A stretch of 64,000 nucleotides of DNA. Origin: an uncultured Gemmatimonadales bacterium. Its GTDB lineage: Bacteria > Gemmatimonadota > Gemmatimonadetes > Longimicrobiales > RSA9. The notes below the pieces were generated by a model. The model searched no databases. It saw nothing but the letters and a program-made list of their open reading frames with translations, and was not told the origin of the DNA. The DNA is taken from contig CAVUKA010000003.1 in the NCBI GenBank assembly GCA_963741945.1, positions 659,998 through 723,997 of the forward strand, given 5' to 3'. The first letter of the stretch is position 1; every line of letters starts with the position of its first letter. The translations under genes were made by a program, and so were the position numbers. This document shows positions 2,897 through 16,610 of the stretch, piece by piece.

Positions 2897-4894
2897 ATGC
2901 CAGCTCCAGACGACGCTTTCCTGCGCGCCATCTTCCTGGGCCCCCACGCCGAGAACGCCGGACTGTTCGAGCGGCTGATCATCGACGCGCTGCGCGACCA
3001 CGTGCGGTGGCGCCGGGATCACCACCCGGAGGATCCGGCCGTGGTGGACGAGCGGCAGCGGAACGATCCGGCGTTTCGCGCGACTGCGGAGCGGCTGACC
3101 AGCGAGCTGTCGGGGCTGCTGGAGGAGCTGAAGCGGGGCGTGCCCTTCTTCAGCGGGCGCTACAAGGGCCACATGAACTACGAGCAGACGCTGGCGAGCC
3201 AGGCGGCGTACTTCGCGGCGATGCTCTACAACCCCAACAACGTGGCCATCGAGGCGTCGCCCGTGACCACGCGCCTGGAGCTGGACGTGGCGCGACAGAT
3301 CGCGGAGATGATCGGATACCGCCCCGCCACGTCCTGGGGGCACCTCACGTCCGGTGGCACGGTGGCGAACTTCGAAGCACTCTGGATCGCCCGGAACATC
3401 CACTACCTGCCGGTCGCCGCGTCCGGCGCCGACGACGAGCTGGGGCTGCGGCTGGACGTGCGCACGCCCACGGGAGACACGGCGCCGCTGACGGAGCTGT
3501 CGCTGCGTGACCTGCTGAACATCCGCCCCACCGACGCGCTGGACCTGTGGGATGCGCTCTGGGCCTCCGGCGATCGGGCGGAGATCCACGCGGCGCTCCA
3601 GGACCATTCCCTCCAGGCCGTGGGCTACCAGGACTATGGTCGTCGCCTGGCGGCGGCGTATGGAGACCCGCTGCCGCCCGCCGTGGTGGTGGTGGCCGCC
3701 AGCGCGCACTACTCGTGGGAGAAGATCGTGCGCGCGCTCGGGATCGGGTCGAACCAGCTGCGCTTCATCCCCATTGACGACCACTACCGGATGGACCCGG
3801 ACGCGCTCTGGCGCATGGTTCGCGACCTGGACGCGGAGCGCACGCCGATCCTGGCGTGCATCAGCGTGTGCGGCACCACGGAGGAGAGCGCCGTGGACCG
3901 GCTCGACCGGGTGGTGGAAGTGAGGGAGCGTGCGGAGTCCGAGCTCGGGGTGGCGTTCCACCTCCACTCCGATGCGGCCTACGGCGGCTATGCGGCGGCC
4001 GTGACCTGGGATGGCGACGGGCGGCGCCGGAGCCTCGAGGCGATCCGCGCGTCCGCGGGCACTCCCGACTGGCCGGAGGCCGGCTGGGTCTCCTCCATGG
4101 AAGCACTGGCGGAAGCCGACTCCGTCACCATTGATCCGCACAAGCTGGGCTACATCCCCTATCCCGCGGGCGCCATCGCGGTGCGGGACCGGCGCGCCAG
4201 GGAGCTGGTGGCCATCGACCCGCCCTACCTCCTCCCCACGCGCGGCCTGGACTCCGCCGAAGACCTCTTCCTCGGCCGCTTCATCCTCGAAGGCTCCAAG
4301 CCCGGCGCCGCGGCGGCAGCGGTGTGGCTGAGTCACCGCGTCCTCCCGCTGGACGAGCGCGGCCACGGCCGCCTCGTCGAGCGCACCGCGGCCGGCGCCC
4401 GGAAGCTGCACGCGGCTCTCGCCTCCTCGCCCCTCACCCCGTTCCGCATGGTCCTGCTGCCGCCGCCCGACATCAACATCGTGTGCGGCGTGCTGACGCA
4501 CCCCGACCTCCACTCCCTGGCGGAGGTCAACGCGCTGAACGAGGGGATCTACGCGCGCATGAGCCTCACCCGGCCGGGCGCCGCCCCCGACTACATCATC
4601 ACCCGCACCCGCTTCCAGACGCCCATGTACGATGGCGCCGTGGACCCGCTCCTGCACGAGCTCGGGATTCCGACAGACGAGTGGCGCGAGAGCGGTCAGG
4701 ACGGACTCGTGGTCCTCCGGGCCACTGTCATGGACCCGTTCCTCGTCGACGACGACGGGTTCGACGCCGCCGCCGTCGACGCCGCCACCGACACCCGCCA
4801 TCCGGACGCCGACGCCACCGCCCGGGGTGGGCACATCAGAGGCTTCATCGCCGCCCTGAAAGCCGCCGCCGGTGCATGCATGACCGGGCCGTAG
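2897..4894 (+). CDS. PLP-dependent group II decarboxylase (tyrosine-decarboxylase-like)
   Basis: FLGPHAEN, RYKGHM, WGHLTSGGTVANFEALW, HSDAAYGGY, SVTIDPHKLGY (PLP lysine) and ILEGSKPGA motifs. Confidence 0.9.
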   Translation: MPAPDDAFLRAIFLGPHAENAGLFERLIIDALRDHVRWRRDHHPEDPAVVDERQRNDPAFRATAERLTSELSGLLEELKRGVPFFSGRYKGHMNYEQTLASQAAYFAAMLYNPNNVAIEASPVTTRLELDVARQIAEMIGYRPATSWGHLTSGGTVANFEALWIARNIHYLPVAASGADDELGLRLDVRTPTGDTAPLTELSLRDLLNIRPTDALDLWDALWASGDRAEIHAALQDHSLQAVGYQDYGRRLAAAYGDPLPPAVVVVAASAHYSWEKIVRALGIGSNQLRFIPIDDHYRMDPDALWRMVRDLDAERTPILACISVCGTTEESAVDRLDRVVEVRERAESELGVAFHLHSDAAYGGYAAAVTWDGDGRRRSLEAIRASAGTPDWPEAGWVSSMEALAEADSVTIDPHKLGYIPYPAGAIAVRDRRARELVAIDPPYLLPTRGLDSAEDLFLGRFILEGSKPGAAAAAVWLSHRVLPLDERGHGRLVERTAAGARKLHAALASSPLTPFRMVLLPPPDINIVCGVLTHPDLHSLAEVNALNEGIYARMSLTRPGAAPDYIITRTRFQTPMYDGAVDPLLHELGIPTDEWRESGQDGLVVLRATVMDPFLVDDDGFDAAAVDAATDTRHPDADATARGGHIRGFIAALKAAAGACMTGP

Positions 4895-5013
4895 GCGTTC
4901 GGGCCCCGCCCCGCCCCCGTTTCACACGACCGGCCCTCTCCTTGCCCGCGCCCTCTCCCCACCACAGCTTCCCTGGAATCCACCCGGACCGGGACCGCTC
5001 ACAACGCGACGCC

Positions 5014-6987
5014 ATGCGTACAAGTCACCGCTTCTCCACGACCCGGAAGACGGCCGCAGCGCCCTTCCTCGCCCTCGCCCTCCTCTTCGCCCCGGGGCTC
5101 CCCGGACCCGCGCGCGCCCCGGGCGCGCCGCTGGGACCCGCGCGCGGCGCCGCGCAGGCGCCGGAGGCGGTGGACACCGCCTGGGTCCGCGCCCACTACA
5201 GCAAGCGGGAGGTCTACATCCCGATGCGCGACGGCGCTCGCCTGTTCACGGCGATCTACACCCCCCGCGACACGACGCGCGCGTACCCGATGCTGATGAT
5301 GCGGACGCCGTACAGCGTGCGTCCCTACGGCGAGTCCGCCTACCCGGCGTCGCTGGGCCCGAACGCCTCGTTCACGCGCGACGGCTTCATCTTCGTCTAC
5401 CAGGACGTGCGCGGGCGGATGATGTCGGAGGGGAACTTCCTGAACATGACGCCGCACGTGGAGGAGAAGCGGGGCCCATCGGACGTGGACGAGAGCAGCG
5501 ACACGTACGACACGGTCGACTGGCTCCTGGCGAACGTCCCCGGCAACAACGGCCGCGTGGGCCAGTGGGGGATCAGCTACCCGGGCTTCTACAGCGCCGC
5601 GGGGATGATCGACCACCACCCGGCTCTGGTCGCCGTGTCGCCCCAGGCGCCGATCGCGGACTGGTGGTACGACGACTTCCACCACAATGGCGCGTTCTGG
5701 CTCCCCCACTTCTTCGGCTTCTTCTGGTTCTTCGGGCAGCCCCGCCCGGTGCCCACCACCCAGTTCCCCGCGCCGCTGGACTACGGCACAGTGGACGGGT
5801 ACGCGTTCTACCGCGACCTGGAGCCGCTGGCGGGCGTGGACCGGGACTGGTACCGCGGCCAGGTGGCGTTCTGGGACTCGATGGTGGCCCACCCGGACTA
5901 CGACGCGTTCTGGCAGCGGCGGAACCTGCGGCCGCACCTGAAGAACGTGGCGCCCCACGTCCTGACCGTCGGCGGCTGGTTCGACGCCGAGGACCTGTTC
6001 GGCGCGCTGGCCACGTACCGCTCCATCGAGGCACAGAACCCGGACGTCGACAACCGCATCGTCGAAGGCCCGTGGTTCCACGGCGGCTGGGAGCGGAGCA
6101 CCGGCCAGCAGCTGGGAGACGCCTGGTTCGAGCAGGCCACGTCGGAGTTCTTCCAGGACAGCATCGAGCTCCCCTGGTTCCGCCACTGGCTGAAGGGCGC
6201 GCCCGATCCAGGGCTCGCCGAAGCCACCATGTTCGACACGGGCGTCAACCGCTGGCGCCGCTTCGCCGAGTGGACGCCCCCCGCCGCCGCCGAGCGTGCG
6301 CTCTACTTCGAGCGCGATGGCGCGCTGGCCTGGTCGCCGCCCGGTGACGCGGACGCTTTCGATGAGTGGATCAGCGACCCGGCCCACCCGGTCCCGTTCA
6401 CGCGCGAAGTGACGTTCGGGATGAGCCGCGAGTACATGACGGAGGACCAGCGCTTCGCCGCCCGCCGTCCTGACGTGGTGGTGTATCGGACGGAGCCGCT
6501 GGAAGAGGACCTGACGCTGGCCGGGCCACTCGTCGCCGACCTCTGGGTCTCCACATCCGGCACGGCCTCCGACTGGATCGTGAAGCTGGTGGACGAGTTC
6601 CCCGGTGACGCCCCGGACACGCCGGCCGCACGCGAGCGCACCGGCTTCCACACGGGCGGCTACCAGATGATGGTGCGCAGCGAGGCCATCCGCGGGCGCT
6701 ACCGGGACGACCCGTCCCGCCCCGCGCCGTTCCGCCCGAGTGAGCCCACGCGCGTGTCCCTCCCGCTGCAGGACGTGCTGCACACGTTCCGGAAGGGGCA
6801 CCGTATCATGGTGCAGGTACAGAGCACGTGGTTCCCGCTCGTCGACCTGAACCCGCACACCTACGTGCCGAACCTCTACGCTCTCGAGGCGACCGGCCCG
6901 TTCGTGAAGGCGACGCAGCGCGTCTACCGGTCGCTCGAGCACCCATCGCGCCTGGTCCTCCACGTCCTTGCGCCCGAGGGGAGCTGA
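5014..6987 (+). CDS. CocE/NonD family hydrolase (alpha-amino acid ester hydrolase / glutaryl-7-ACA acylase-like), secreted
   Basis: Signal-peptide-like N-terminus; IPMRDGARLFT, RTPY, QDVRGR, GISYPG nucleophile motif, GWFDAED and GPWFHGGW. Confidence 0.92.
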   Translation: MRTSHRFSTTRKTAAAPFLALALLFAPGLPGPARAPGAPLGPARGAAQAPEAVDTAWVRAHYSKREVYIPMRDGARLFTAIYTPRDTTRAYPMLMMRTPYSVRPYGESAYPASLGPNASFTRDGFIFVYQDVRGRMMSEGNFLNMTPHVEEKRGPSDVDESSDTYDTVDWLLANVPGNNGRVGQWGISYPGFYSAAGMIDHHPALVAVSPQAPIADWWYDDFHHNGAFWLPHFFGFFWFFGQPRPVPTTQFPAPLDYGTVDGYAFYRDLEPLAGVDRDWYRGQVAFWDSMVAHPDYDAFWQRRNLRPHLKNVAPHVLTVGGWFDAEDLFGALATYRSIEAQNPDVDNRIVEGPWFHGGWERSTGQQLGDAWFEQATSEFFQDSIELPWFRHWLKGAPDPGLAEATMFDTGVNRWRRFAEWTPPAAAERALYFERDGALAWSPPGDADAFDEWISDPAHPVPFTREVTFGMSREYMTEDQRFAARRPDVVVYRTEPLEEDLTLAGPLVADLWVSTSGTASDWIVKLVDEFPGDAPDTPAARERTGFHTGGYQMMVRSEAIRGRYRDDPSRPAPFRPSEPTRVSLPLQDVLHTFRKGHRIMVQVQSTWFPLVDLNPHTYVPNLYALEATGPFVKATQRVYRSLEHPSRLVLHVLAPEGS

Positions 6988-6988
6988 T

Positions 6989-7615
6989 ATGCCCGGCGGG
7001 CTGATCGGAGGGCTGGAGCGGTTCCGCCGCGAGACGTTCCCCCGCTACCGGGACCACTACCGCCGGCTGGTGGAAGAGGGGCAGCGCCCGGGCACGCTGT
7101 TCATCGGCTGCGCCGACTCGCGCGTGGTTCCGGACCTGCTCGTGAGCGCGGAGCCGGGCGAGCTGTTCATCGTGCGCAACATCGGCGCGTTCGTGCCGCC
7201 GTGCGGGGAAGACCCGTGCTTCGACGGCACCGCCGCCGCCATCGAGTTCGCGCTCCTCGAGCTGGACGTCACGGACATCGTGGTGTGCGGCCACTCCCAC
7301 TGCGGCGCGGTCAAGGCCCTGTACCAGCCGCCCGGCGACGACGCGCCGCACCTCCGGAAGTGGCTCGAGCTCGGCGCCCGCGCCCGCCTCGGCAGCGACG
7401 CCCCGACGCCCACCCCACCATCCCGGGGGCTGCTTTCCCGCACCGAGCAGCGTTCCGTGGCCCTGCAGCTGGGGAACCTCCTGACGTACCCCGTGGTCCG
7501 GGAGCGCGCCGACGCCGGGACGCTGTCGCTGCATGGGTGGCTGTACGTGATCGAGGACGGACAGGTCCTGGCGCTCGACCTGGAGACGCGGCGGTTCACG
7601 CCCCTGGCGGAATAG
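6989..7615 (+). CDS. Beta-class carbonic anhydrase
   Basis: GCADSRV, LFIVRNIG and CGHSHCGAV zinc-binding motifs; starts 1 nt after the CocE stop. Confidence 0.93.
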   Translation: MPGGLIGGLERFRRETFPRYRDHYRRLVEEGQRPGTLFIGCADSRVVPDLLVSAEPGELFIVRNIGAFVPPCGEDPCFDGTAAAIEFALLELDVTDIVVCGHSHCGAVKALYQPPGDDAPHLRKWLELGARARLGSDAPTPTPPSRGLLSRTEQRSVALQLGNLLTYPVVRERADAGTLSLHGWLYVIEDGQVLALDLETRRFTPLAE

Positions 7616-7638
7616 GGACCGGCGCCCGGGCTGGTTTC

Positions 7639-10600
7639 CTAGGCGGCCGAGCCCTCCCGCAGCCCGCGCAGCGCGCGCAGCGCCGTGCCGCCACCCACCA
7701 CTTCCGCGCCATTCTGGACGTAGGCGCCGTCGGGCCTCAGCTCCCACAGGTCCGGCGCGTGGAGGACGCCATCGAGGATCTCCCGGAGACGCTCGCCGAG
7801 CTCGGGTCGCCGAACGGGCACCGCCACTTCGACGCGTCGGGACAGGTTCCGCGGCCGCCAGTCGGCGGAGCCGATGAAGTACTCCGGGGCCCCGCCATTG
7901 GCGAACTCGAAGATGCGCGCGTGCTGGAGCAATCGTCCGAGCAGGCTGACGATCCGGATGTTCTCCGACAGCCCGGGCACGCCGGGGCGCAGCGCGCAGA
8001 TCTCCCGCACCGCCAGCTCCACGGGGACGCCGGCATGGGATGCCTCGTACAGCTTGGCGATCATGCGACGATCGGCCAGCCCGTTCAGCTGCCCGCGCAG
8101 CCCCGCCGGCCGCCCGGCCCGCGCGTGGTCGATCTCGCGGTCGATGAGCCGCAGGAATCGCTGCCGCATGTTGAATGGAGAGACCAGGAGGTGGTCGAAG
8201 TCGCCCGTGGCCGAGTAGCCGGTGAGGATGTTGAACACGGCCTGCAGCTCTTCACCGATCTCCGGGTCGGACGTGAGCAGCGCCACGTCCGTATACGTGC
8301 GGGCCGTGGCCGCGTTGAGGTTGCCGGTGCCGATGTAGCTGTAGCGCACCAGCTCGTCGCCTTCCCGTCGCACCACCAGCCCCGCCTTCGCGTGCACCTT
8401 GTACTTCAGCGGGCTGAACACCACGTGGATCCCGGCCGCCGAAAGCGACTTGGCCCACGCGATGTTCTGCTGTTCGTCGAAGCTGGCCTTGATCTCGATC
8501 AGCGCCACGGCATCCTTCCCCATCTCCCTCGCCCGCGACAGCGCCTGCACGATCTCCGACGACGAGTCCGTCCGGTACAGCGTGACTTTCAGCGCCACCA
8601 CGTCCGGATCCTCCGCCGCCTCACGGACGAAGCGCTCCGCGCTGCTGGTGAAGTCGTCATCGGGGAAGTAGACCAGGCGGTCGGCCTCCCGCAGCAGGTC
8701 GAACACGGGACGCCGCGGCTCGAGCGGGACGGAGCGGTGCATGGGCGGGAAGCGGACGTCGTCGCCGATCTCCATTTCCGCGACCTCCTCCAGCGCGGCC
8801 AGGTCGATGAGCCCGTCCACCACGTACACGTCCTGCGGTCCCAGCCACCATGATTCGGTGGGCGACTCGTAGCGCAGCTCGTTCACGATCATCTGCCGCA
8901 GCGAACGCGGCATGCGCGCGTCCACCTCCAGCCGCACCGGCGAGCGGAACGGGCGACGAGCCACGTCCTCCTCCACCGCCTGCAGCACATCCCCCACCAG
9001 CGTCTCCTCCAGTTGCGTGCGCGCGCTCCGCGTCACGCGGAAGAGGTGCGCGCTCTGCACCGTGAGCCCGGAGTAGAGGTCCGGGAGGCGCGCCACCAGC
9101 AGCTCCTCCAGCGGGACCAGCCGGCGGCCGTCCTCCAGCGGCAGAAAGCGCGGAAGCTCGCCCGGCAGCTCCACGGCCGTGAAGTGCGCCCGGTCCGAGC
9201 CCGGGAGCCGCACCACGGCCCCGATCGCCGGACGCAGGTTCCGCATGTGCGGGAACGGATGGCTCGCGTCGGCGGCCATCGGCGTGAGCACCACTTCCGC
9301 GTCGGTGGCGTAGCGCTCCAGCAGGTACGCGCGGTCCTCCTCGCCCAGCTCCCGCCAGCGCAGGATCCGCACACCCCGCTCCGCCAGCGCGGGGAGAAGC
9401 CGCCGCTGCAGCAGTCGCTGCGCCCTCGCCGCCACCTGCCGTGCGCGGATGCCGATCAGGTCCAGCTGCTCCCGCGCGCTCAGACCGTCCATGGTCCGCC
9501 GGTTGCCGGGCGATGCGGCCTCCTCCTTGAACCCGGCCACACGGGTCATGAAGAAGTCGTCCTGCCGACTGCCGAACATGGACAGGAATCGCACCCGCTC
9601 GAGGAGCGGCGTATCGCCGGACTCGGCGAACGCGAGGATGCGCTCGTCGAAGCTCACACGGCTCAGCTCCGCGTTCAGCAGGTGCGCCGGCGGGACATCC
9701 TTTCCGGGCGCCGCCTCGGGCAGCGGGACCGGCGAGAGCGCGAGCTCCAGCGCTTCCGGGCCCGCATCCGCCTCTCCGAGCTCCGCCGCCCCATCGCCGC
9801 TCAGCAGGTCGGAGCGCGCGGCCACCTCGAGCGCCGCGAGGGTGCGCGCGCCGCGCAGCGCGGCGCTCCCCACCGCCCCCAGCGCTTCCGCCAGCGGCAC
9901 CCAGACAAGCTCCCCGTCCGCCGTGTCCGGCTGTACCTCATCCGTGGCCCACACCTCGAGCGCCGGCCGACCGGGTCCGCCGGGGTTCGTGCCCAGGAGC
10001 CGCACGCGCGCGCCCGCAGCCGCAAGCACTTTCGAGACGAGCCGCCGGGCGGCGGTCTCTCCGCTGCCGTCTCCGAACGGGATGCGCAGCCGCCCGCCAT
10101 CGCGGAGCAGGGCGATGCGGCCATGGGCGTGGGCGACGATCGCCAGCTCCCGCGCGGCCCGAACCTCCCGCTCGAGCGCCTCGATCTCGGCATCATCGAG
10201 GAGGTCCCGGGCGCGAGTGGCGGGATCGGAGAGCGTGATCCGGACCCCGGGCTCGCGCTCGAGCGATGTCACCAGCGCTTCCACGTCCGCGTCCACGGCC
10301 GCGGTCACCACGATCTCCCAGAGCGTTCCCGACAGGTCGTTCCTCCGCACGGTCAGCGCGTCGTAGGAGAGGGTGAGCGCCTGCCCGGAGCCGGGAGCGC
10401 GGCCCGAGAGGGAAACATGCCTCAGCCGGCACAGCGTCTCCACCTCGAACGCCTGCTCCAGGCGCGCGGGATCGATGAGCCCGCGAAGCAGCTCCGCGGC
10501 CTCGGAATCGCCGTGAAACACGCTCCCGGCATCGCCCGGCTCGACGTCCGACTCCGCGCTCCGCGCCGCTCCTTCGCCATCGCTCGCGCTCCGGATGTCC

Positions 10601-10824
10601 ACGCGCAGCGTACGCCGCCCGTCCGCGTGGTGCCGCAGCCGCACGGCCGCCGGCTTGAGCCCCAGCTCTCCGCCGGCGGTGTCGTAATACACGTCCCGGA
10701 ACACCTCGATGGAGCGGCCCTCCTCACGCCCGGGGACCGGGAGCGGCCGTACGGCCAGGCCATCGAGGAGCTCGCCGCTCGGGACCTGGAAGCGGATCGT
10801 CCGCCGCCCTCCCGCCGACCTCAC
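7639..10824 (-). CDS. ppk1: Polyphosphate kinase 1 with N-terminal CYTH-like and Nudix-like domains (~1061 aa)
   Basis: PPK1 motifs LLNAELS..PLLERVRFL, SHPFPHM, KVTLYRT, KVHAK, GTGNLN..TARTYTD and GSADWRPRNLSRRVE lie in 7639-9681. The N-terminus has CYTH-like DVYYDT..AVRLR. The GTG start overlaps the upstream TGA (GTGA). Confidence 0.88.
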   Translation of the reverse strand: MRSAGGRRTIRFQVPSGELLDGLAVRPLPVPGREEGRSIEVFRDVYYDTAGGELGLKPAAVRLRHHADGRRTLRVDIRSASDGEGAARSAESDVEPGDAGSVFHGDSEAAELLRGLIDPARLEQAFEVETLCRLRHVSLSGRAPGSGQALTLSYDALTVRRNDLSGTLWEIVVTAAVDADVEALVTSLEREPGVRITLSDPATRARDLLDDAEIEALEREVRAARELAIVAHAHGRIALLRDGGRLRIPFGDGSGETAARRLVSKVLAAAGARVRLLGTNPGGPGRPALEVWATDEVQPDTADGELVWVPLAEALGAVGSAALRGARTLAALEVAARSDLLSGDGAAELGEADAGPEALELALSPVPLPEAAPGKDVPPAHLLNAELSRVSFDERILAFAESGDTPLLERVRFLSMFGSRQDDFFMTRVAGFKEEAASPGNRRTMDGLSAREQLDLIGIRARQVAARAQRLLQRRLLPALAERGVRILRWRELGEEDRAYLLERYATDAEVVLTPMAADASHPFPHMRNLRPAIGAVVRLPGSDRAHFTAVELPGELPRFLPLEDGRRLVPLEELLVARLPDLYSGLTVQSAHLFRVTRSARTQLEETLVGDVLQAVEEDVARRPFRSPVRLEVDARMPRSLRQMIVNELRYESPTESWWLGPQDVYVVDGLIDLAALEEVAEMEIGDDVRFPPMHRSVPLEPRRPVFDLLREADRLVYFPDDDFTSSAERFVREAAEDPDVVALKVTLYRTDSSSEIVQALSRAREMGKDAVALIEIKASFDEQQNIAWAKSLSAAGIHVVFSPLKYKVHAKAGLVVRREGDELVRYSYIGTGNLNAATARTYTDVALLTSDPEIGEELQAVFNILTGYSATGDFDHLLVSPFNMRQRFLRLIDREIDHARAGRPAGLRGQLNGLADRRMIAKLYEASHAGVPVELAVREICALRPGVPGLSENIRIVSLLGRLLQHARIFEFANGGAPEYFIGSADWRPRNLSRRVEVAVPVRRPELGERLREILDGVLHAPDLWELRPDGAYVQNGAEVVGGGTALRALRGLREGSAA

Positions 10825-11876
10825 CCCTCGTCCTCCCTCGGGTGGTACGGTACGTACTCCGCCGCCGCCACGGTGGGCGACCAGCGGTCTTCCAGCTCGC
10901 CGAGGATGTCCACGGGCGTCTTCTTCTTTCGCAGCCGCACCGCCGCCTCCAGCGTGTAGACGCCGTTGCGCCCGAGCGGCGGCTCGTGGAACAGCCACTC
11001 CTTCCCGATCTCGCTCAGCACCACCTCCGCCACCTGCCTCGCCGAGCGCGGCTCCGTTGTGTGGATCAGCAGGATCCCGTCCGTCTTGATCTGGTCGGCC
11101 AGCTCCTCGAGCCGTTTCCGCACCCGGTCCTGCCCCTGTGGCGTCTGGGCGATCATCATGCTGGTGTCGCCCACCGACAGGAGCTCCGCGTCCTCGTCCA
11201 CGTACACCTCGAGGTCGTACTTCCAGAAGACCAGCACCATGACCGCGAAGGTCAGCGACAGGACGAGCGCGATGTCCACCGCCTGCACGCCGCACGCGAG
11301 CCCGATGGCCATGACCAGGAAGACGTGAACGGCATCCTTTGGATTCTTCACCGTGGTGCGGAAGCGCACTGCCGCCACGATCCCCGCCAGGCTGAATGCC
11401 AGCGCCAGGCTGTTCTTCACCACCATGACCGTCCCGGTCACCACGGGCGGCAGCATGATGAGCGTGTGCACCAGCGAGCGGTCGTAACGAAGTCGCTGCG
11501 CGAACGTGTATACCCACGCGATCGGCAGGACGAGCAGGATGGTGGCCGCGATGGCCAGCGCGGTGGTGAGCACCCGCGCGCTTTCCGTGCGCGCGGGGAC
11601 GATCAGCGCCTTCGGATTCACGATGTTCCCCGCATCCGCCACGTTCCCGCCCAGCGGCGACACCAGCGCCTTCTCCACGCCCGGGATGAAGTGCACGCCC
11701 AGGAGTCCGATCCCGATCAGCACGGCGTAATAGAAGAGAAGCCGCACAATCGGGATCTTCCGGGAATGCTCCGCATACCGGCGTCGGTCTCCGTTGCGGG
11801 ACCATCGCCCCCTGGCGGATCGACCCACGTCGGCAGCCTCGCCGCCGTTGTGTCCGGTATCCTGCCGCTCCGCCAC
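10821..11876 (-). CDS. DUF4956-like membrane protein with soluble C-terminal extension
   Basis: TLIMLPPVVTGTVMVVKNSLALAFSLAGIVAAVRFRTTVKNPKDAVHVF..AIGLACG signature; several TM segments; AAAGGAG RBS before GTG 11876. Confidence 0.85.
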   Translation of the reverse strand: MAERQDTGHNGGEAADVGRSARGRWSRNGDRRRYAEHSRKIPIVRLLFYYAVLIGIGLLGVHFIPGVEKALVSPLGGNVADAGNIVNPKALIVPARTESARVLTTALAIAATILLVLPIAWVYTFAQRLRYDRSLVHTLIMLPPVVTGTVMVVKNSLALAFSLAGIVAAVRFRTTVKNPKDAVHVFLVMAIGLACGVQAVDIALVLSLTFAVMVLVFWKYDLEVYVDEDAELLSVGDTSMMIAQTPQGQDRVRKRLEELADQIKTDGILLIHTTEPRSARQVAEVVLSEIGKEWLFHEPPLGRNGVYTLEAAVRLRKKKTPVDILGELEDRWSPTVAAAEYVPYHPREDEG

Positions 11877-12018
11877 GCGTTCTGCTCCTTTCAACCGCTG
11901 GTTCGCGGTCCGGAAGGGGCAAAAAGCGCGCCTTCACCGCGGCCGGGCGAGCCGCGGCCCCGACGCACGACGGCCCCGCCCGGCGAGCGCCGGACGGGGC
12001 CATCGTGTCCTGCTACAT

Positions 12019-12045
12019 CCGTTCCGCGGTGGGACCGCGGAACGG
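12019..12045 (-). terminator. Perfect 12-bp hairpin just after susD; likely terminator or stabilising stem
   Basis: CCGTTCCGCGGT-GGG-ACCGCGGAACGG lies 6 nt after the stop at 12052; no clear U-tract. Confidence 0.55.
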
Positions 12046-12051
12046 TTCGGC

Positions 12052-13413
12052 TCAGCCTTCGTAGCCCGGGTTCTGCGTCAGGTTCGGCGCAACGTCGAGC
12101 TCCGAGACCGGGAGCGGCCAGAGCGCCTTGTACGGCGCCCACCGGCTCCCGAACGCGGCCGCGCCCTCGCCCAGCCGGTTCAGGTCGAACCACCGGTCGC
12201 CCTCGAACGCCAGCTCCAGCCGGCGCTCCAGGTAGATGGCATCCAGTACGTCCGCCTGGCTGTTGTTGAGGTCCGCGGCGAGGTCGTACGTCGCAACGCC
12301 CGCCCGCTCGCGGATCATGTTCAGGTACTCCACCGCCGTGTCCAGGTCACCCTGCTCCGCCGCGGCCTCGGCCACGATCAGCAGGATCTCGCCATAGCGG
12401 ATCACGTTGAAATCTTCGGTCCCCGCCGTGGTCGGGAACTTCAGGACCTGGATCCCATCCGGCCGCGTCTCGCCGAAGTCCGCGGCGAAGCGCTGGTCGT
12501 TGGCCTGGTCGAAGAGGTAGTAGATCTCTTCCGTCGCCCCGATCTCGAAGCGTCCGGCGTACTGGTAATAGAAGCCGAAGTTGTTGTAGTCGACCGAGGT
12601 GAAGACGATCTTGAAGATGTCCTCGGGCGAGCCCTGGTCGGCCCACAGCGACGCGTAGTTCGAGGCGAGATCGTAGTCGCCCGAGTTCACCAGCCGCATG
12701 GCCGCGGCCTGCGCCTGCGACCACTTCTGCTGGTACAGCGACGCCTTCGCCAGCAGCGCGTCGGTGAAGCCCGGCGTCATGAAGCTGCGATCCGAGTTGT
12801 CGATCCCGGCCGACGTCATGAGCGTCTTCGCCTGCGCCAGGTCCGCCTCGATCTGGGCATACACCTCGGCGACCGACGCCCGCGCCACCTGCGACGCCTC
12901 ATCCAGCGACGCCGGCGGCTCCAGCACCAGCGGCACGCCGCCGTAGGCACGCACCAGCGAGAAGTAGTTGAGCGCCCGGAGCGCGTACGCCTGCCCGAGC
13001 AGCCAGTCCTTGTCCGACTGCTCGATGTTGTCCAGCTCCGGCACCTTCTGGATCAGGTGGTTGACCCGGTCGATCCCCCGGTAGGCGAGGTTCCAGATCC
13101 ACTCAATGGAGTAGTTGGCCGCCGTCGTGTTCAGGAGGTCCGCCTCGCCATAGCTGCCATACGTGCCGGTGTGCTCGGCGTTGTCCGACATGTTCTCCGA
13201 CCACAGGACGTAGTCGCCGCCGTAGTAGTCGCCGCTCTGGAGCGCGCTGTACCCGCCCATCAGCGCCGCCGTGGCGGACTCCATGTCGATGATCGCCACG
13301 CTGGATGCGATGGCGTCCTCGGGCAGCACTTCCAGCGGCCCCTGGTCGCACGCCGCCACGCCTGCCAGGAGCAGCAGCGCGGGCGCCATTCGGAATAGTT
13401 TCTTCATGGTCAT
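12052..13413 (-). CDS. RagB/SusD family outer-membrane lipoprotein
   Basis: Lipobox VAAC; GQAYALRALNYFSLVRAYGGVPL, IRYGEILLIVAEA, ERRLELAFEGDRWFDL and LTQNPGY. Confidence 0.93.
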   Translation of the reverse strand: MTMKKLFRMAPALLLLAGVAACDQGPLEVLPEDAIASSVAIIDMESATAALMGGYSALQSGDYYGGDYVLWSENMSDNAEHTGTYGSYGEADLLNTTAANYSIEWIWNLAYRGIDRVNHLIQKVPELDNIEQSDKDWLLGQAYALRALNYFSLVRAYGGVPLVLEPPASLDEASQVARASVAEVYAQIEADLAQAKTLMTSAGIDNSDRSFMTPGFTDALLAKASLYQQKWSQAQAAAMRLVNSGDYDLASNYASLWADQGSPEDIFKIVFTSVDYNNFGFYYQYAGRFEIGATEEIYYLFDQANDQRFAADFGETRPDGIQVLKFPTTAGTEDFNVIRYGEILLIVAEAAAEQGDLDTAVEYLNMIRERAGVATYDLAADLNNSQADVLDAIYLERRLELAFEGDRWFDLNRLGEGAAAFGSRWAPYKALWPLPVSELDVAPNLTQNPGYEG

Positions 13414-13426
13414 TTCCTTTCCGCGC

Positions 13427-16400
13427 TCACCAGTTCCCCTGGAACCCGAACGTGATCGTCCGGGCCAGCGGATAGGCGTAGAAGTCGGTCCCGAGCGTCG
13501 CGGCCGCGGCGCCGGAGCCGCCGTAGTTGTTCTCCGGGGCGTAGCCGGAATAATCCGTCCACGTCTTCAGGTTCTTGCCCGACACGAAGAACCGGCTGTT
13601 GCTCGCCCGGATCAGGTTGTTGATGGCGTCCGGCACCTTCACGCCGAGCGTGACCTCGCCGAGACGTACGTAGGACGCGTCCTCGAGGTAGCGGCTGGAC
13701 TCGACCCACGCGCCGGTCGAGCCGTACCAGCTCGGGCTCGGAGCGGTGCCGTCCGGGTTGTCCGGCGTCCAGTAGTTCTCCACGTGGACCTTGAACTTGT
13801 TGTCCAGGAAGTAGCCGCCATCATCGGAGTACTCGCGCATGGCGTTGTAGATCTTCGCGCCCTGGCTGAAGTCGAAGAACGCCATCAGGTCGAACGCGCC
13901 ATACGAGAACGTGTTGCGGATCCCGCCGTAGTAATCCGGGTGCGGGCTGCCCACGATCATGCGGTCGTCGGAGCCGGGGAAGGTGGTCCAGACGATGTCG
14001 CCGTTGGCGTCGTACTGCACGTTGCCGTCGGCATCCAGGTCCACGTACTTCGCCACGCCCGTCTCCCGGTCCACGCCGATGTACTTGGGCGTGTAGAAGA
14101 CACCGATCGGCTGTCCGACCTCGACCCAGTTGATGAACCCGGAGGGGAACGGCTCGTCCTTGTAGAGCGCGGTCACCTTGTTCCGGTTGCGGGTCAGGTT
14201 GAGCTCCGTGGTCCACTCGAACCCGTTGGCCCGGTTCGGCCGGACGTTCACCGTGTTGAGGCTGAGCTCCCATCCCTCGTTCCGGATCCCGCCCACGTTG
14301 GCGAGCACGGACGTGAAGCCGCTGGTGGCGGTGACCGGCCGGTTGAGCAGCAGGTCGTTCGTGTTCTTCCAGTAGCGCTCGACCACGAAGCCGAGTCGGT
14401 CATTGAAGAAGCTGAGGTCGAGCCCCAGGTTCGTCTCGCTGGTGGTCTCCCACTTCAGGTCGTTGTTGGCCAGGTTCGCCGGCGCGGTGCCCGGGATCGG
14501 TCCGTAGTTGGCCGTGCCGTAGAGGCCCAGATAGCGGAAGTCGCCGATGGCCTCGTTCCCCGTCTCGCCCCAGCTGGCGCGGAGCTTCATGTCGCTGATG
14601 AAGTCCAGCCCCTGCATGAACGGCTCGGCGCTGACTACCCAAGCCGCGGACGCGGCCCGGAAGACGCCGAACTTGTTGTTCTCACCGAAGCGCGACGAGC
14701 CGTCGGCCCGGATGCTGGCGTTGAGGATGTAGCGGTCGTTGTAGACGTAATTGGCGCGACCGAAGAACGACATGAGGTTGTGCGACCACCCGCTCCCGTC
14801 GTAGCCGGCCACGTCCGCCCCGTTGCCCGGCCAGTTGAGCTCCGGGCTCGTGAAGCTTTCCGTTCGGATGAAGCTCTCCTCGCGCTTGTCCCGTTCCGTC
14901 GACGCGCCCGCCGTCACCGACAGCTCGTGCGCACCGAAGTACTTGTTGCCGGTCAGGTAGCCTTCGAGCAGGTACTTGTTCCCGGATGCGTTGGCCACGC
15001 GCGAGACGCCGCCCACGCCCGACCCGTAGGTCAGCGGGGTCAGCGGTGAGTTCCAGCGATGCTCGCGCAGGTTGAGGATGTCGAAACCTGCGCGGCCCGT
15101 GGCCGTCAGCCAGCTGGTTGCCACGTAGTTCGCGGTGAGGCTGCCGAAGGTCCGGTTCGTGAGGGCGTTCGTGAAGTCCTCCACGCCCACCGCCACCGGG
15201 TTCGAGTACGAGGCCCAGTCGCTCCAGGCGCCCGTCGCGGGGTCCTTCACCGGCACCCACGGCTCGTTGGCGATGGCGTTCGTGACCGGGCTGACGATGG
15301 AGTTGTCCGACTCGATCCGGTCATTGTTCTCCCGGGACAGCGACAGGGACGTGCTGAAGCTCAGCTTGTCCGACGCCTGGAAGTCCAGGTTCGCCCGGCC
15401 GGAAGCCCGGTTGTACCCGGACCCGATGATGATCCCGGTCTGGTCGAAGTACGTGCCGGAGATGTAGTACTTGAACGCCTCGGTCCCGCCGCTCACGCTG
15501 AGCTGCGTGTTGCTGATCGGCGCGGTCCGCATGACTTCTTCCTGCCAGTCCGTATTGACGCTCGGGTCCACGCCGAACGAGTTCAGCTCGTCCTGGACGT
15601 CCGCCTCGGTGTAGCCGTCGTAGCGCATCCCGTCCGAGAAGTACTGGATCCACTCGGCCGTGCTCAGCATCGGGATCTTCTTCTGCGACTGCTGGAAGCC
15701 GCCCGACACGTTCACGCTCACCTGCGGCCGGCCGGCCGTCTGGGCGCCGCGCTTGGTCGTGATCATGATCACGCCGTTCGAGCCCCGCGAGCCGTAGATC
15801 GCTGCCGCGGCCGCGTCCTTCAGGATGTCGATGGACTCGATGTCGTCGGGGTTCAGCCCCGTGATGGACGACAGGTCCTGGCCGCCCAGCCCCAGCTGGC
15901 CGAAGTCCTCGCGGAAGATCGGCACGCCATCCACCACGTACAGCGGCTGGTTGCCCGCCGAGATCGACGAGCTGCCGCGCACGCGCACCGTGATTCCGTT
16001 GCCGGGGTTACCCGCGTTCTGGATCACCTGTACGCCCGCGGCCTTGCCCTGCAGCGCGGCGTCGAGACTCGCCACCACGCGATTTTCGACGTCCTGCGTC
16101 TGGACCGTGCTGATGGCGCTGCTCACTTCCCGCCGCGTCTGCTGCGCGTATCCGGTGGCCACCAGCTCCTCGAGCTGGATCGCCGTGACGCCCAGCTGGA
16201 AGTCCTCCGTGGCCGTGCCGCCCGCGGCGACCGTGATGGTGCGCGCCTGGGGGGAGTAGCCGATGTACTCCACGCGCACTTCCGCTCGACCGCTCGGCAC
16301 CCGCGTGAGGAGGTACCGTCCATCGTTGTTCGTGATCGTTCCGATTCCCGTGCCTCGAATCATCACCTGAGCGCCGGAGATCGGCTCTCCGGTCTGCGCG

Positions 16401-16519
16401 TCGGTGACGGTGCCACGGATCGCGCCCGGTTCCTGCGCGGCGAGACTCCGTGGTGCGCCGAAGGCGGTCAGCGCGATGGCGACCGCGAGCGACGCGAAGG
16501 CTGCGCACGATGTCTTCAT
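13427..16519 (-). CDS. SusC/RagA family TonB-dependent outer-membrane transporter
   Basis: Carboxypeptidase-regulatory-like N-domain; plug motif LNPDDIESIDILKDAAAAAIYGSRGSNGVIMITTKRG; NDLKWETT; C-terminal aromatic residue; AGGAGG RBS. Confidence 0.95.
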   Translation of the reverse strand: MKTSCAAFASLAVAIALTAFGAPRSLAAQEPGAIRGTVTDAQTGEPISGAQVMIRGTGIGTITNNDGRYLLTRVPSGRAEVRVEYIGYSPQARTITVAAGGTATEDFQLGVTAIQLEELVATGYAQQTRREVSSAISTVQTQDVENRVVASLDAALQGKAAGVQVIQNAGNPGNGITVRVRGSSSISAGNQPLYVVDGVPIFREDFGQLGLGGQDLSSITGLNPDDIESIDILKDAAAAAIYGSRGSNGVIMITTKRGAQTAGRPQVSVNVSGGFQQSQKKIPMLSTAEWIQYFSDGMRYDGYTEADVQDELNSFGVDPSVNTDWQEEVMRTAPISNTQLSVSGGTEAFKYYISGTYFDQTGIIIGSGYNRASGRANLDFQASDKLSFSTSLSLSRENNDRIESDNSIVSPVTNAIANEPWVPVKDPATGAWSDWASYSNPVAVGVEDFTNALTNRTFGSLTANYVATSWLTATGRAGFDILNLREHRWNSPLTPLTYGSGVGGVSRVANASGNKYLLEGYLTGNKYFGAHELSVTAGASTERDKREESFIRTESFTSPELNWPGNGADVAGYDGSGWSHNLMSFFGRANYVYNDRYILNASIRADGSSRFGENNKFGVFRAASAAWVVSAEPFMQGLDFISDMKLRASWGETGNEAIGDFRYLGLYGTANYGPIPGTAPANLANNDLKWETTSETNLGLDLSFFNDRLGFVVERYWKNTNDLLLNRPVTATSGFTSVLANVGGIRNEGWELSLNTVNVRPNRANGFEWTTELNLTRNRNKVTALYKDEPFPSGFINWVEVGQPIGVFYTPKYIGVDRETGVAKYVDLDADGNVQYDANGDIVWTTFPGSDDRMIVGSPHPDYYGGIRNTFSYGAFDLMAFFDFSQGAKIYNAMREYSDDGGYFLDNKFKVHVENYWTPDNPDGTAPSPSWYGSTGAWVESSRYLEDASYVRLGEVTLGVKVPDAINNLIRASNSRFFVSGKNLKTWTDYSGYAPENNYGGSGAAAATLGTDFYAYPLARTITFGFQGNW

Positions 16520-16580
16520 GCGAAGTGCCTCCTGGGTTGTTTGTGGAAGAAGGGTGCGATGCGGGTGAGGCATCGCCCGC

Positions 16581-16610
16581 ATTGTACCTTTCCATCAGGA
16601 ACGCTGTCAA
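16581..16610 (-). promoter_or_regulatory. Sigma70-like promoter of susC/susD
   Basis: Minus strand reads TTGACA-N18-TACAAT about 60 nt upstream of the ATG; near-consensus in a very GC-rich background. Confidence 0.7.

Follow-up and report, generated by a model that had tools for sequence, protein, structure and literature searches.

Polyphosphate kinase 1 (PPK1) is the main bacterial polyphosphate synthase, and its cellular positioning and control are poorly understood. DUF4956 is a widespread membrane protein, and we know of no tested function for it or for any of the systems in which it stands beside CotH and VTC-domain proteins. The described systems closest to the locus reported here are canonical PPK1 (E. 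coli PPK; 1XDO, 1XDP), the eukaryotic VTC complex (Vtc4/Vtc3/Vtc1; 3G3Q, 7YTJ, 8I6V) and an accessory gene set of cotH, a poly-phosphate polymerase gene and a DUF4956 gene beside Gram-positive pel loci, as given in the accessible part of PMC7112168; the CotH-like member of this set is called secreted in the accessible part of an S. intermedius preprint. The locus lies in a 64,000-nucleotide stretch, hereafter the window (contig CAVUKA010000003.1; C3:659998-723997), of the genome of an uncultured Gemmatimonadales bacterium (4.09 Mb, 8 contigs, 96.7% complete). It consists of a long-form DUF4956 gene and an overlapping gene for a protein in which CYTH-like and Nudix-like domains precede a PPK1 body. 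The pairing of PPK1 with DUF4956 is conserved across a bacterial class, and the kinase is probably docked at the membrane on its partner.

Compared with canonical PPK1, the fusion protein had the same four domains (phmmer E 1.5e-100 over residues 384-1019) and kept the autophosphorylated His and the C2-domain His, but it differed in its 380 extra N-terminal residues, its coupled membrane partner and a Tyr at the position of E. coli H454. It shared with the VTC complex a tunnel-fold domain tied to a polyphosphate synthase and an integral membrane protein, whereas in the window PPK1 and not the tunnel domain is the predicted synthase, DUF4956 serves as the membrane partner and an SPX domain is missing. 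As in the CotH/VTC-domain/DUF4956 set (PMC7112168, accessible part), DUF4956 was paired with a tunnel-fold protein, and relatives of the window add a possibly CotH-like exported partner; the window DUF4956, however, is longer (351 aa, where that of the set has 220 aa) and bears an additional N-terminal helix as well as an ACT-like tail, and the tunnel domain, apparently dead, forms part of the PPK1 polypeptide. By structure as well as by sequence, the N-terminal domain had its best match in YgiF (TTM-CHAD; 5A60, 5A61), in which a tunnel domain is also fused to a polyphosphate-related module, yet YgiF is an active triphosphatase with ExExK and a CHAD fusion, while the window protein is missing ExExK and is a fusion with Nudix and PPK1. 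Non-catalytic Nudix domains (NrtR, AraR and the MutY C-terminal domain; Z 11-11.8) likewise have the fold without a working box and use it for binding, but they sit on DNA-binding or glycosylase domains and that of the window on CYTH and PPK1. MgtC proteins likewise join helices in the membrane to an ACT-like domain in the cytoplasm (Z 7.5-7.6), but the Pfam MgtC model did not match the window DUF4956 and the profile alignment was limited to the C-terminal 64 columns. In the accessible parts of the full-text literature, no description was found of a CYTH- or Nudix-extended PPK1, nor of DUF4956 function. The initial annotation, made from the sequence of the window, had considered the architecture undescribed; this agreed with the literature so covered, but public records, in which the long protein is named polyphosphate kinase, already label fragments of it CYTH domain-containing protein.

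Natural fusions provided the strongest evidence that DUF4956 and PPK1 would act side by side at the membrane. In six genomes of two genera, one stop-free frame of 928-973 aa from the first start codon encoded the DUF4956 membrane part, a linker of ~60 aa and a complete PPK1; both the CYTH-Nudix module and the DUF4956 C-terminal domain were absent from these direct fusions. A 1317-aa DUF4956::CYTH-Nudix::PPK1 protein, also without the DUF4956 C-terminal domain, was found as a cluster of 4 members on 2 contigs, and it was weighted below the six direct fusions because a single indel at a window-like overlap could produce it. Since the fused PPK1 needs ATP, the C-terminus of DUF4956 would be cytoplasmic. 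Docking of PPK1 on a membrane protein, which the initial annotation had suggested, is strongly backed by these fusions.

Linkage was surveyed in 67 genomes, with flanks of up to 9 kb to either side of one module gene per genome and with neighbours mapped by tblastn; the window genome and one unpublished genome were omitted, and for one two-copy genome the fetched copy was the one without DUF4956. DUF4956 lay upstream on the same strand in 48 of 67 loci, at ≤150 nt in 15, at 0.8-1.2 kb in 9 and at 2.4-4.6 kb in 24, and three further loci had it nearby in a different orientation, which showed that the placement of DUF4956 beside an extended ppk1 is conserved. This survey replaced an earlier count with 1.5-kb flanks, in which DUF4956 was present in 6/29 loci. 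The genes between DUF4956 and PPK1 included an Omp85-like outer-membrane gene (~850-980 aa) in 13 loci and a Ser/Thr kinase-TPR gene in 11, while the shorter gaps held a calcineurin-like phosphoesterase and a family of ~330-425 aa. That the linkage persists through such rearrangement argues for function.

The same architecture was present without internal stops in 25 other proteins, nearly all of 1030-1080 aa (word-indexed protein search), and the few named ones were all Gemmatimonadota or Longimicrobiales. Among 401 sampled Gemmatimonadota genomes, the CYTH-Nudix-PPK1 module was found in 69 (32 of 148 genera), concentrated in one family (52 of 166 genomes) and with frames nearly always of ~1050-1100 aa; DUF4956 was found in 194. 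A profile search of 1.84 billion representatives gave 173 clusters at E<=1e-30, among them no evidence of a free-standing module, the nine short matches examined being labelled partial or lying on short contigs. One partial record of the module was binned as Thermoanaerobaculia. As a single query, the window N-terminal region had no match in species genome contigs.

The four PPK1 Pfam domains (PF13089, PF02503, PF17941 and PF13090) lay at residues 383-1037 with E 1.7e-23 to 5.6e-58, all above cut-offs, and since they begin at 383 the ~380 extra residues claimed by the initial annotation are real. NCBIfam TIGR03705 scored 624.5 bits against a cut-off of 465.85, and the PPK1 body aligned end to end with solved PPK1 structures (phmmer E 1e-100 to 1e-104). 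In the alignment to solved PPK1, the equivalents of E. coli H435 and H592 were preserved (KVHAK and LQHARIF), as they were in 24-25 relatives; according to the accessible part of PMC6537752, mutating these two residues inactivates E. coli PPK1. Genome search showed a single PPK1 gene in the 96.7% complete assembly, so that the fusion is the sole PPK1 and a second, canonical ppk1, raised earlier as something to look for, is not present in it. The same search found no PPK2, no match for a VTC-domain gene (PF09359) and no further CYTH gene besides the PPK1 fusion. The PPK1 body is, as predicted from these comparisons, complete and the sole recognisable polyphosphate synthase of the cell. At the position of E. 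coli H454, the His forms, which occur in more distant module-bearing PPK1s, carry GNYN, and the His-to-Tyr swap accompanies a Tyr-to-Leu change four residues on.

The N-terminal region was modelled with AlphaFold2 from an alignment (A1) of the first 380 residues of the window protein with 28 relatives from genomes of the same phylum, and the model had a predicted local distance difference test score (pLDDT) of 88.3 and a predicted template-modelling score (pTM) of 0.71. Residues 6-214 matched YgiF with a VIA-align Z of 15.9 (root-mean-square deviation (rmsd) 3.3, 187 aligned; Foldseek E 1.1e-9), plant and archaeal triphosphate tunnel metalloenzymes (TTMs) with Z 14-15 and Vtc4 with Z 12.8, and the A1 profile also matched YgiF by sequence (E 1.4e-4). 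The Pfam CYTH model (PF01928) scored 18.6 bits on residues 38-142 of the window protein, below its cut-off of 23.2, and a match to it is already recorded for 17/25 relatives. Residues 224-346 matched 1vhg (VIA-align Z 12.8, rmsd 2.6, 120 aligned), 2w4e (Z 12.8), NrtR (Z 11.8), AraR (Z 11.6) and Rv2985 (Z 10.7), with dozens of Nudix entries at Z 10-12. By profile, the match was to a Thermus ADP-ribose pyrophosphatase and was weak (E 0.13); the register for the Nudix-box comparison was taken from it. Pfam Nudix (PF00293) did not match the window protein at E<=0.1. In the model, a long helix (201-223) bridges the two domains, and the linker before the PPK1 body was poorly conserved and of variable length in A1. 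Both folds had been proposed in the initial annotation, as a CYTH-like segment at ~10200-10824 (residues 1-208) and a degenerate Nudix segment at ~9800-10160 (residues 221-341), and both were confirmed; the motifs it cited were also in place (RRTIRF 7-12, DVYYDT 44-49, AVRLR 60-64, LSYD 152-155 and LWEI 168-171).

In CYTH/TTM enzymes the N-terminal ExExK motif binds metal and substrate, and the Nudix box is GX5EX7REUXEEXGU with catalytic glutamates. Inspection of the A1 columns showed that ExExK was absent in 29/29 sequences, the family having [R/K]-x-[D/E]-V-P at its position and the window R-F-Q-V-P. The first Glu site was R or K in 22 of the 24 sequences having a residue there, and the Lys site was Pro in 20/29 rows. 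The Nudix-box Glu sites were acidic in 0/29, 9/29 (E or D) and 0/29 sequences in the register of the HMM alignment; in an alternative register, with E256 as box position 7, the paired Glu sites were Gly (27/29) and Ser/Thr. The loss of ExExK and the degenerate character of the Nudix segment had thus been read correctly at the outset; the REUxEE glutamates are gone under both registers, and both domains look catalytically retired. The tunnel domain of Vtc2/3 is also regarded as non-catalytic. The Nudix helix retained G253, G255, E256 and R260, and the CYTH arginines were kept, out of 29 sequences, in 29 (R43), 23 (R62), 27 (R64), 27 (R114), 28 (R132), 28 (R135) and 28 (R204). The near-invariant R43, R62, R64, R114, R132 and R135 should line the tunnel, which would suit binding of an anionic chain of phosphates or of a small ligand resembling polyphosphate.

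The DUF4956 protein matched Pfam PF16316 at E 8e-13 over profile positions 9-146 of 169, its 48.9 bits exceeding the cut-off of 30.6, and aligned with canonical 220-aa DUF4956 at an hhalign probability of 56% over a core of 66 columns; genome search showed it to be the only DUF4956 of the genome. The AlphaFold2 model, built from 31 sequences (alignment A2), had a pLDDT of 81.6 and six predicted membrane helices followed by a C-terminal domain that would be cytoplasmic, and an A-V-R-F-R...D-x-K-D stretch between helices 4 and 5 was invariant in A2. The C-terminal domain matched the ACT domain of SerB with a VIA-align Z of 8.4 (rmsd 2.0, 80 aligned) and the MgtC C-terminal domains with Z 7.6 and 7.5, values that permit only the claim of a common fold and nothing beyond. 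The membrane part had no Foldseek match among solved structures at E<=0.001. No VTC chain or channel was among the DUF4956 fold matches, of which the top VIA-align rows were the C-terminal domain or generic helices, with the membrane part barely probed; the best helical row was a designed protein (Z 8.7). A likeness of DUF4956 to the VTC membrane part, which the VTC analogy of the initial annotation would imply, found no match in these fold searches. A relationship to MgtC was considered and rejected, as PF02308 did not match at E<=0.1 and hhalign with true MgtC proteins of the window genome and related genomes covered only the C-terminal 64 columns at 26% probability; the genome also has a separate true MgtC. 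Complex prediction of the DUF4956 C-terminal domain (A2 186-313) with CYTH-Nudix (A1 1-350) scored 0.00 in both runs and carries no weight either way. The idea that these two might be docking surfaces comes solely from both being missing from the direct fusions, and the presence of the ACT-like domain in genomes that lack the CYTH-Nudix module weakens it.

The initial annotation had also stated that DUF4956 genes neighbour VTC-domain genes. This was borne out by the accessible part of PMC7112168 and, in the same phylum, by an overlapped operon of CotH (492 aa), VTC-domain (271 aa), DUF4956 (220 aa) and DUF2490 genes at 6928-10700 on the minus strand of locus L054 (G103:C1:4630000-4646000). Of the CotH/VTC-domain/DUF4956 set, the window genome has DUF4956 only, and Pfam CotH had no match in it even at E<=10. 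Descent of the dead CYTH domain from a VTC-domain protein, the origin proposed earlier, gained no support, with an hhalign probability of 1.5% and only the YxDT stretch aligned.

In the surveyed loci the pair was accompanied by further genes for putative envelope proteins. The Omp85-like gene adjoined the pair in 26/67 loci, lying between its members in some and directly behind PPK1 in others. A calcineurin-like phosphoesterase gene accompanied the pair in 13 loci and the ~330-425-aa family in 24. The Omp85-like ortholog of the window genome (G000:C3:734860-737505; L081:5834-8536) lies 64 kb from ppk1 among unrelated neighbours and has a signal-peptide-like start, a 500-aa N-terminal domain without known family and a C-terminal Omp85 barrel. 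The N-terminal domain carries the invariant motifs IGDWDRHxDQWRW and PIPRDRDQAF, and Pfam on 15 members showed Omp85/ShlB only, with unnamed clusters in Atlas. A kinase-like nature of this domain was considered and given no support by sequence, its profile matching only a POTRA/barrel protein among PDB sequences. The ~330-425-aa family (alignment A4; L044:1905-3182 and 23 further loci) has no Pfam family, carries the invariant stretches IGNTDWS...LHN and YDFDWSG, and is the immediate neighbour of long DUF4956 in many genomes, whether or not PPK1 is close by. Its possible CotH likeness is a lead only, given by weak hits (Pfam CotH E 0.041 in 1/10 members; one Atlas cluster with CotH on 11% of members); no PDB sequence matched it, and no profile similarity to the Omp85-like N-terminal domain was found. 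Because this family was not found in the window genome and the Omp85-like gene is 64 kb off, the window shows a stripped-down two-gene core.

Taken as one working unit, the two genes would encode a PPK1 and a DUF4956 protein that keeps it at the inner membrane and probably exerts control over it from there. In this scheme PPK1 would be docked on DUF4956, and the dead tunnel with its conserved arginines and the dead Nudix domain would be binding modules for the growing polyphosphate chain or for a small signal rich in phosphate (for example triphosphate or a derivative of a nucleotide), tuning or positioning the kinase and hydrolysing nothing. The best-supported explanation, considered reasonably probable, is thus that PPK1 is docked at the membrane and that its dead CYTH and Nudix domains bind a ligand or act as adaptors. 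The similar overall interpretation of the initial annotation was supported in part: the folds, the lost motifs, the sole PPK1, the linkage and the docking stood, while a VTC-like DUF4956 membrane part, descent from a VTC-type partner and movement of polyphosphate across the membrane gained no support.

Several points weigh against the membrane-docked PPK1. Docking, ligand and activity of the pair are predictions from sequences and models. The residue at the position of H454, which we take to be important in E. coli PPK1, is Tyr (xYIGTGNLN) in the window and in 25/25 close relatives (P0005-P0027 among them), and in the wider loci it is His in 17/21 PPK1 genes and Tyr in 4. The window CYTH domain deviates at three conserved sites, namely Q13 (D/E in 23/29), C132 (R in 28/29) and T174 (R in 21/29), so that ligand binding is possibly weakened in the window protein. 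An upstream DUF4956 was not found in 19/67 loci, nine of which had less than 5 kb of upstream sequence and ten had more, and the linkage counts overstate the evidence, since related genomes do not count as independent samples. Long DUF4956 from genomes lacking the module lay more than 8 kb from any PPK1 in 18/20 loci; in those 20 loci the ~330-425-aa family came directly after DUF4956 in 13-14 and the Omp85-like gene was adjacent in four. This distance from PPK1, together with a steady other neighbour, speaks against an obligate pair and indicates that DUF4956 has a role without PPK1.

The same envelope neighbours would be tied together if the system exported polyphosphate in the manner of VTC, with the chain made by PPK1 threaded through the dead tunnel and across the inner membrane via DUF4956 to envelope enzymes (a kinase-like protein, a metallophosphoesterase and an Omp85-type barrel) that use or process the polymer. 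The role of DUF4956 as membrane partner of VTC-domain proteins in the CotH-VTC-DUF4956 operon, the Omp85-like gene joining the pair of relatives in two gene orders, the phosphoesterase and the family with weak CotH leads, and the Vtc4 match of the tunnel domain are all consistent with export. It is nevertheless thought unlikely, though deserving some weight, as the DUF4956 membrane part had no VTC or channel match in Foldseek (E<=0.001) or VIA-align, the Omp85-like gene of the window genome is distant and neither the CotH-like family nor Pfam CotH was found there, the sequence tests fail to support kinase-like envelope partners, and the window tunnel domain has lost conserved arginines. A fuller version, which appears rather unlikely, is that Gemmatimonadota rebuilt a VTC-like machine around PPK1, in which the nascent chain would be guided by the retired tunnel and passed across the inner membrane at DUF4956, supplying phosphoanhydride energy or phosphate to envelope enzymes at a site that lacks ATP; the window would then hold its minimal two-gene core.

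CYTH-Nudix could also be an allosteric sensor of a small phosphate-rich metabolite and nothing more, with DUF4956 merely co-regulated (for example in phosphate or magnesium homeostasis of the MgtC type) and making no contact with PPK1. The effector-binding, non-catalytic NrtR and AraR among the Nudix matches, the fit of the conserved arginines to a small anionic ligand, the MgtC-like ACT domain of DUF4956 and the existence of long DUF4956 without nearby PPK1 agree with a sensor, but the two kinds of natural single-polypeptide DUF4956-PPK1 fusion suggest that the proteins lie physically close together, the overlap of stop and start codons speaks for co-production in stoichiometric amounts, the MgtC Pfam model did not match DUF4956 at E<=0.1, and the membrane parts of DUF4956 and MgtC did not align, which leaves this explanation quite unlikely. 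A bifunctional enzyme, with CYTH or Nudix still trimming or priming the polymer as an active triphosphatase, polyphosphatase or nucleotide pyrophosphatase, is highly improbable: many TTM proteins are short-chain polyphosphatases (PMC6537752, accessible part), and a first-strand acidic residue survives in 23/29 relatives and E170 in 25/29, but ExExK is absent throughout A1, the window has Gln at the surviving acidic site and the Nudix-box glutamates are missing under both registers. An assembly or gene-calling error joining separate genes, a possibility noted in the initial annotation as a frameshift, can be regarded as refuted because the ~1050-aa architecture is conserved, being stop-free in 25 other proteins and present in 69/401 genomes, with the domains joined by a folded helix in a confident model; a single-indel fusion at the 4-nt overlap is a concern for the rare triple fusion and not for the window.

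The fusions and the class-wide operon form a concrete link between DUF4956 and PPK1, and they join PPK1 to the VTC-type, tunnel-fold world of polyphosphate synthesis. They point to a link between polyphosphate synthesis and the cell membrane for which we know of no earlier description. If DUF4956 were a conduit for polyphosphate, the polymer would have its first known bacterial exit from the cytoplasm, and the unexplained CotH-VTC-DUF4956 gene sets of many Gram-positive bacteria would be explained. Should its role be limited to anchoring or regulation, CYTH and Nudix would still offer a clear case of enzymes retired to binding modules. A polyphosphate-accumulating isolate from phosphorus-removal sludge belongs to the Gemmatimonadota, and the system may bear on polyphosphate accumulation in this phylum.

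The features of the locus are collected in Table 1. The pair of genes with overlapping TGA and GTG and the protein of ~1061 aa, as first annotated, were confirmed from the open reading frames and translations. The sequence AGGGAGGA, ~8 nt 5' of the PPK1 GTG, is a strong ribosome-binding site, and because of it and the GTGA overlap the DUF4956 and PPK1 genes are translationally coupled.

Table 1. Coordinates of the DUF4956-PPK1 gene pair, its domains and its neighbours in the window.
Feature	Position	Strand	Details and evidence
Long-form DUF4956 gene	10821..11876	-	351 aa + stop; GTG at 11876, TGA at 10823-10821; open reading frame and translation, Pfam PF16316
DUF4956 membrane part	11220..11753 (model residues 4-181)	-	N-terminal helix with conserved YY motif + five helices
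DUF4956 C-terminal ferredoxin/ACT-like domain, beta-alpha-beta-beta-alpha-beta	10848..11180 (residues 195-305)	-	AlphaFold2 model
Shine-Dalgarno-like AAGGAG	11885..11890	-	8 nt before DUF4956 GTG; direct sequence reading
Translational coupling site	10821..10838	-	AGGGAGGA then GTGA; DUF4956 stop overlaps PPK1 start
CYTH-Nudix-PPK1 fusion gene	7639..10824	-	1061 aa + stop; start GTG at 10824-10822
Predicted CYTH/triphosphate-tunnel fold without ExExK	10183..10809 (residues 6-214)	-	AlphaFold2 model, Foldseek, VIA-align, profile
Predicted Nudix fold without catalytic Nudix-box glutamates	9787..10155 (residues 224-346)	-	VIA-align, weak profile match
Ala/Pro/Glu-rich linker, Nudix to PPK1	9685..9786 (residues ~347-380)	-	pLDDT 60-75 over 341-380
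Complete PPK1 body (N, head, C1, C2 domains)	7705..9684	-	Pfam, NCBIfam, phmmer to solved PPK1 structures
SusD-like gene	12052-13413	-	upstream of pair, same strand
TonB-dependent receptor gene	13427-16582	-	upstream of pair, same strand
Carbonic anhydrase gene	6968-7615		downstream, converging on pair
S15 peptidase gene	4324-6987		downstream, converging on pair

The G+C content of the window is ~72%. The spacer between the SusD-like and DUF4956 genes is ~175 nt long and holds GC-rich hairpins; within 11895-12051 a perfect 11-bp inverted repeat (CCGTTCCGCGG...CCGCGGAACGG) was observed, with more GC-rich palindromes ending in CTTTTTG. These palindromes may end SusCD transcription and leave the DUF4956-PPK1 pair its own transcript. 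In scans of 7300-12300, no promoter-like site was found, and the one terminator-like site was on the wrong strand and did not exceed chance expectation. An S15 X-Pro dipeptidyl-peptidase gene adjoins the CotH-VTC-DUF4956 operon of L054, and an S15 peptidase gene adjoins the window pair too.

Variants of the locus were observed in relatives. In family f5, four loci (L044, L126, L129 and L130) had a shorter fusion of ~926-942 aa, in which tblastn finds the CYTH part and not the Nudix part. Five of the six direct-fusion genomes (L074, L075, L077, L078 and L079) had a second, unextended PPK1 ~2 kb downstream on the opposite strand, and L089 had a second plain PPK1 and then a DUF4956 gene. In one genus group, at L035 (1858-4329) and 10 further loci, a TPR-repeat Ser/Thr protein kinase of 823 aa separates DUF4956 from the extended PPK1, and Ser/Thr kinase genes recurred near the cluster in many loci.

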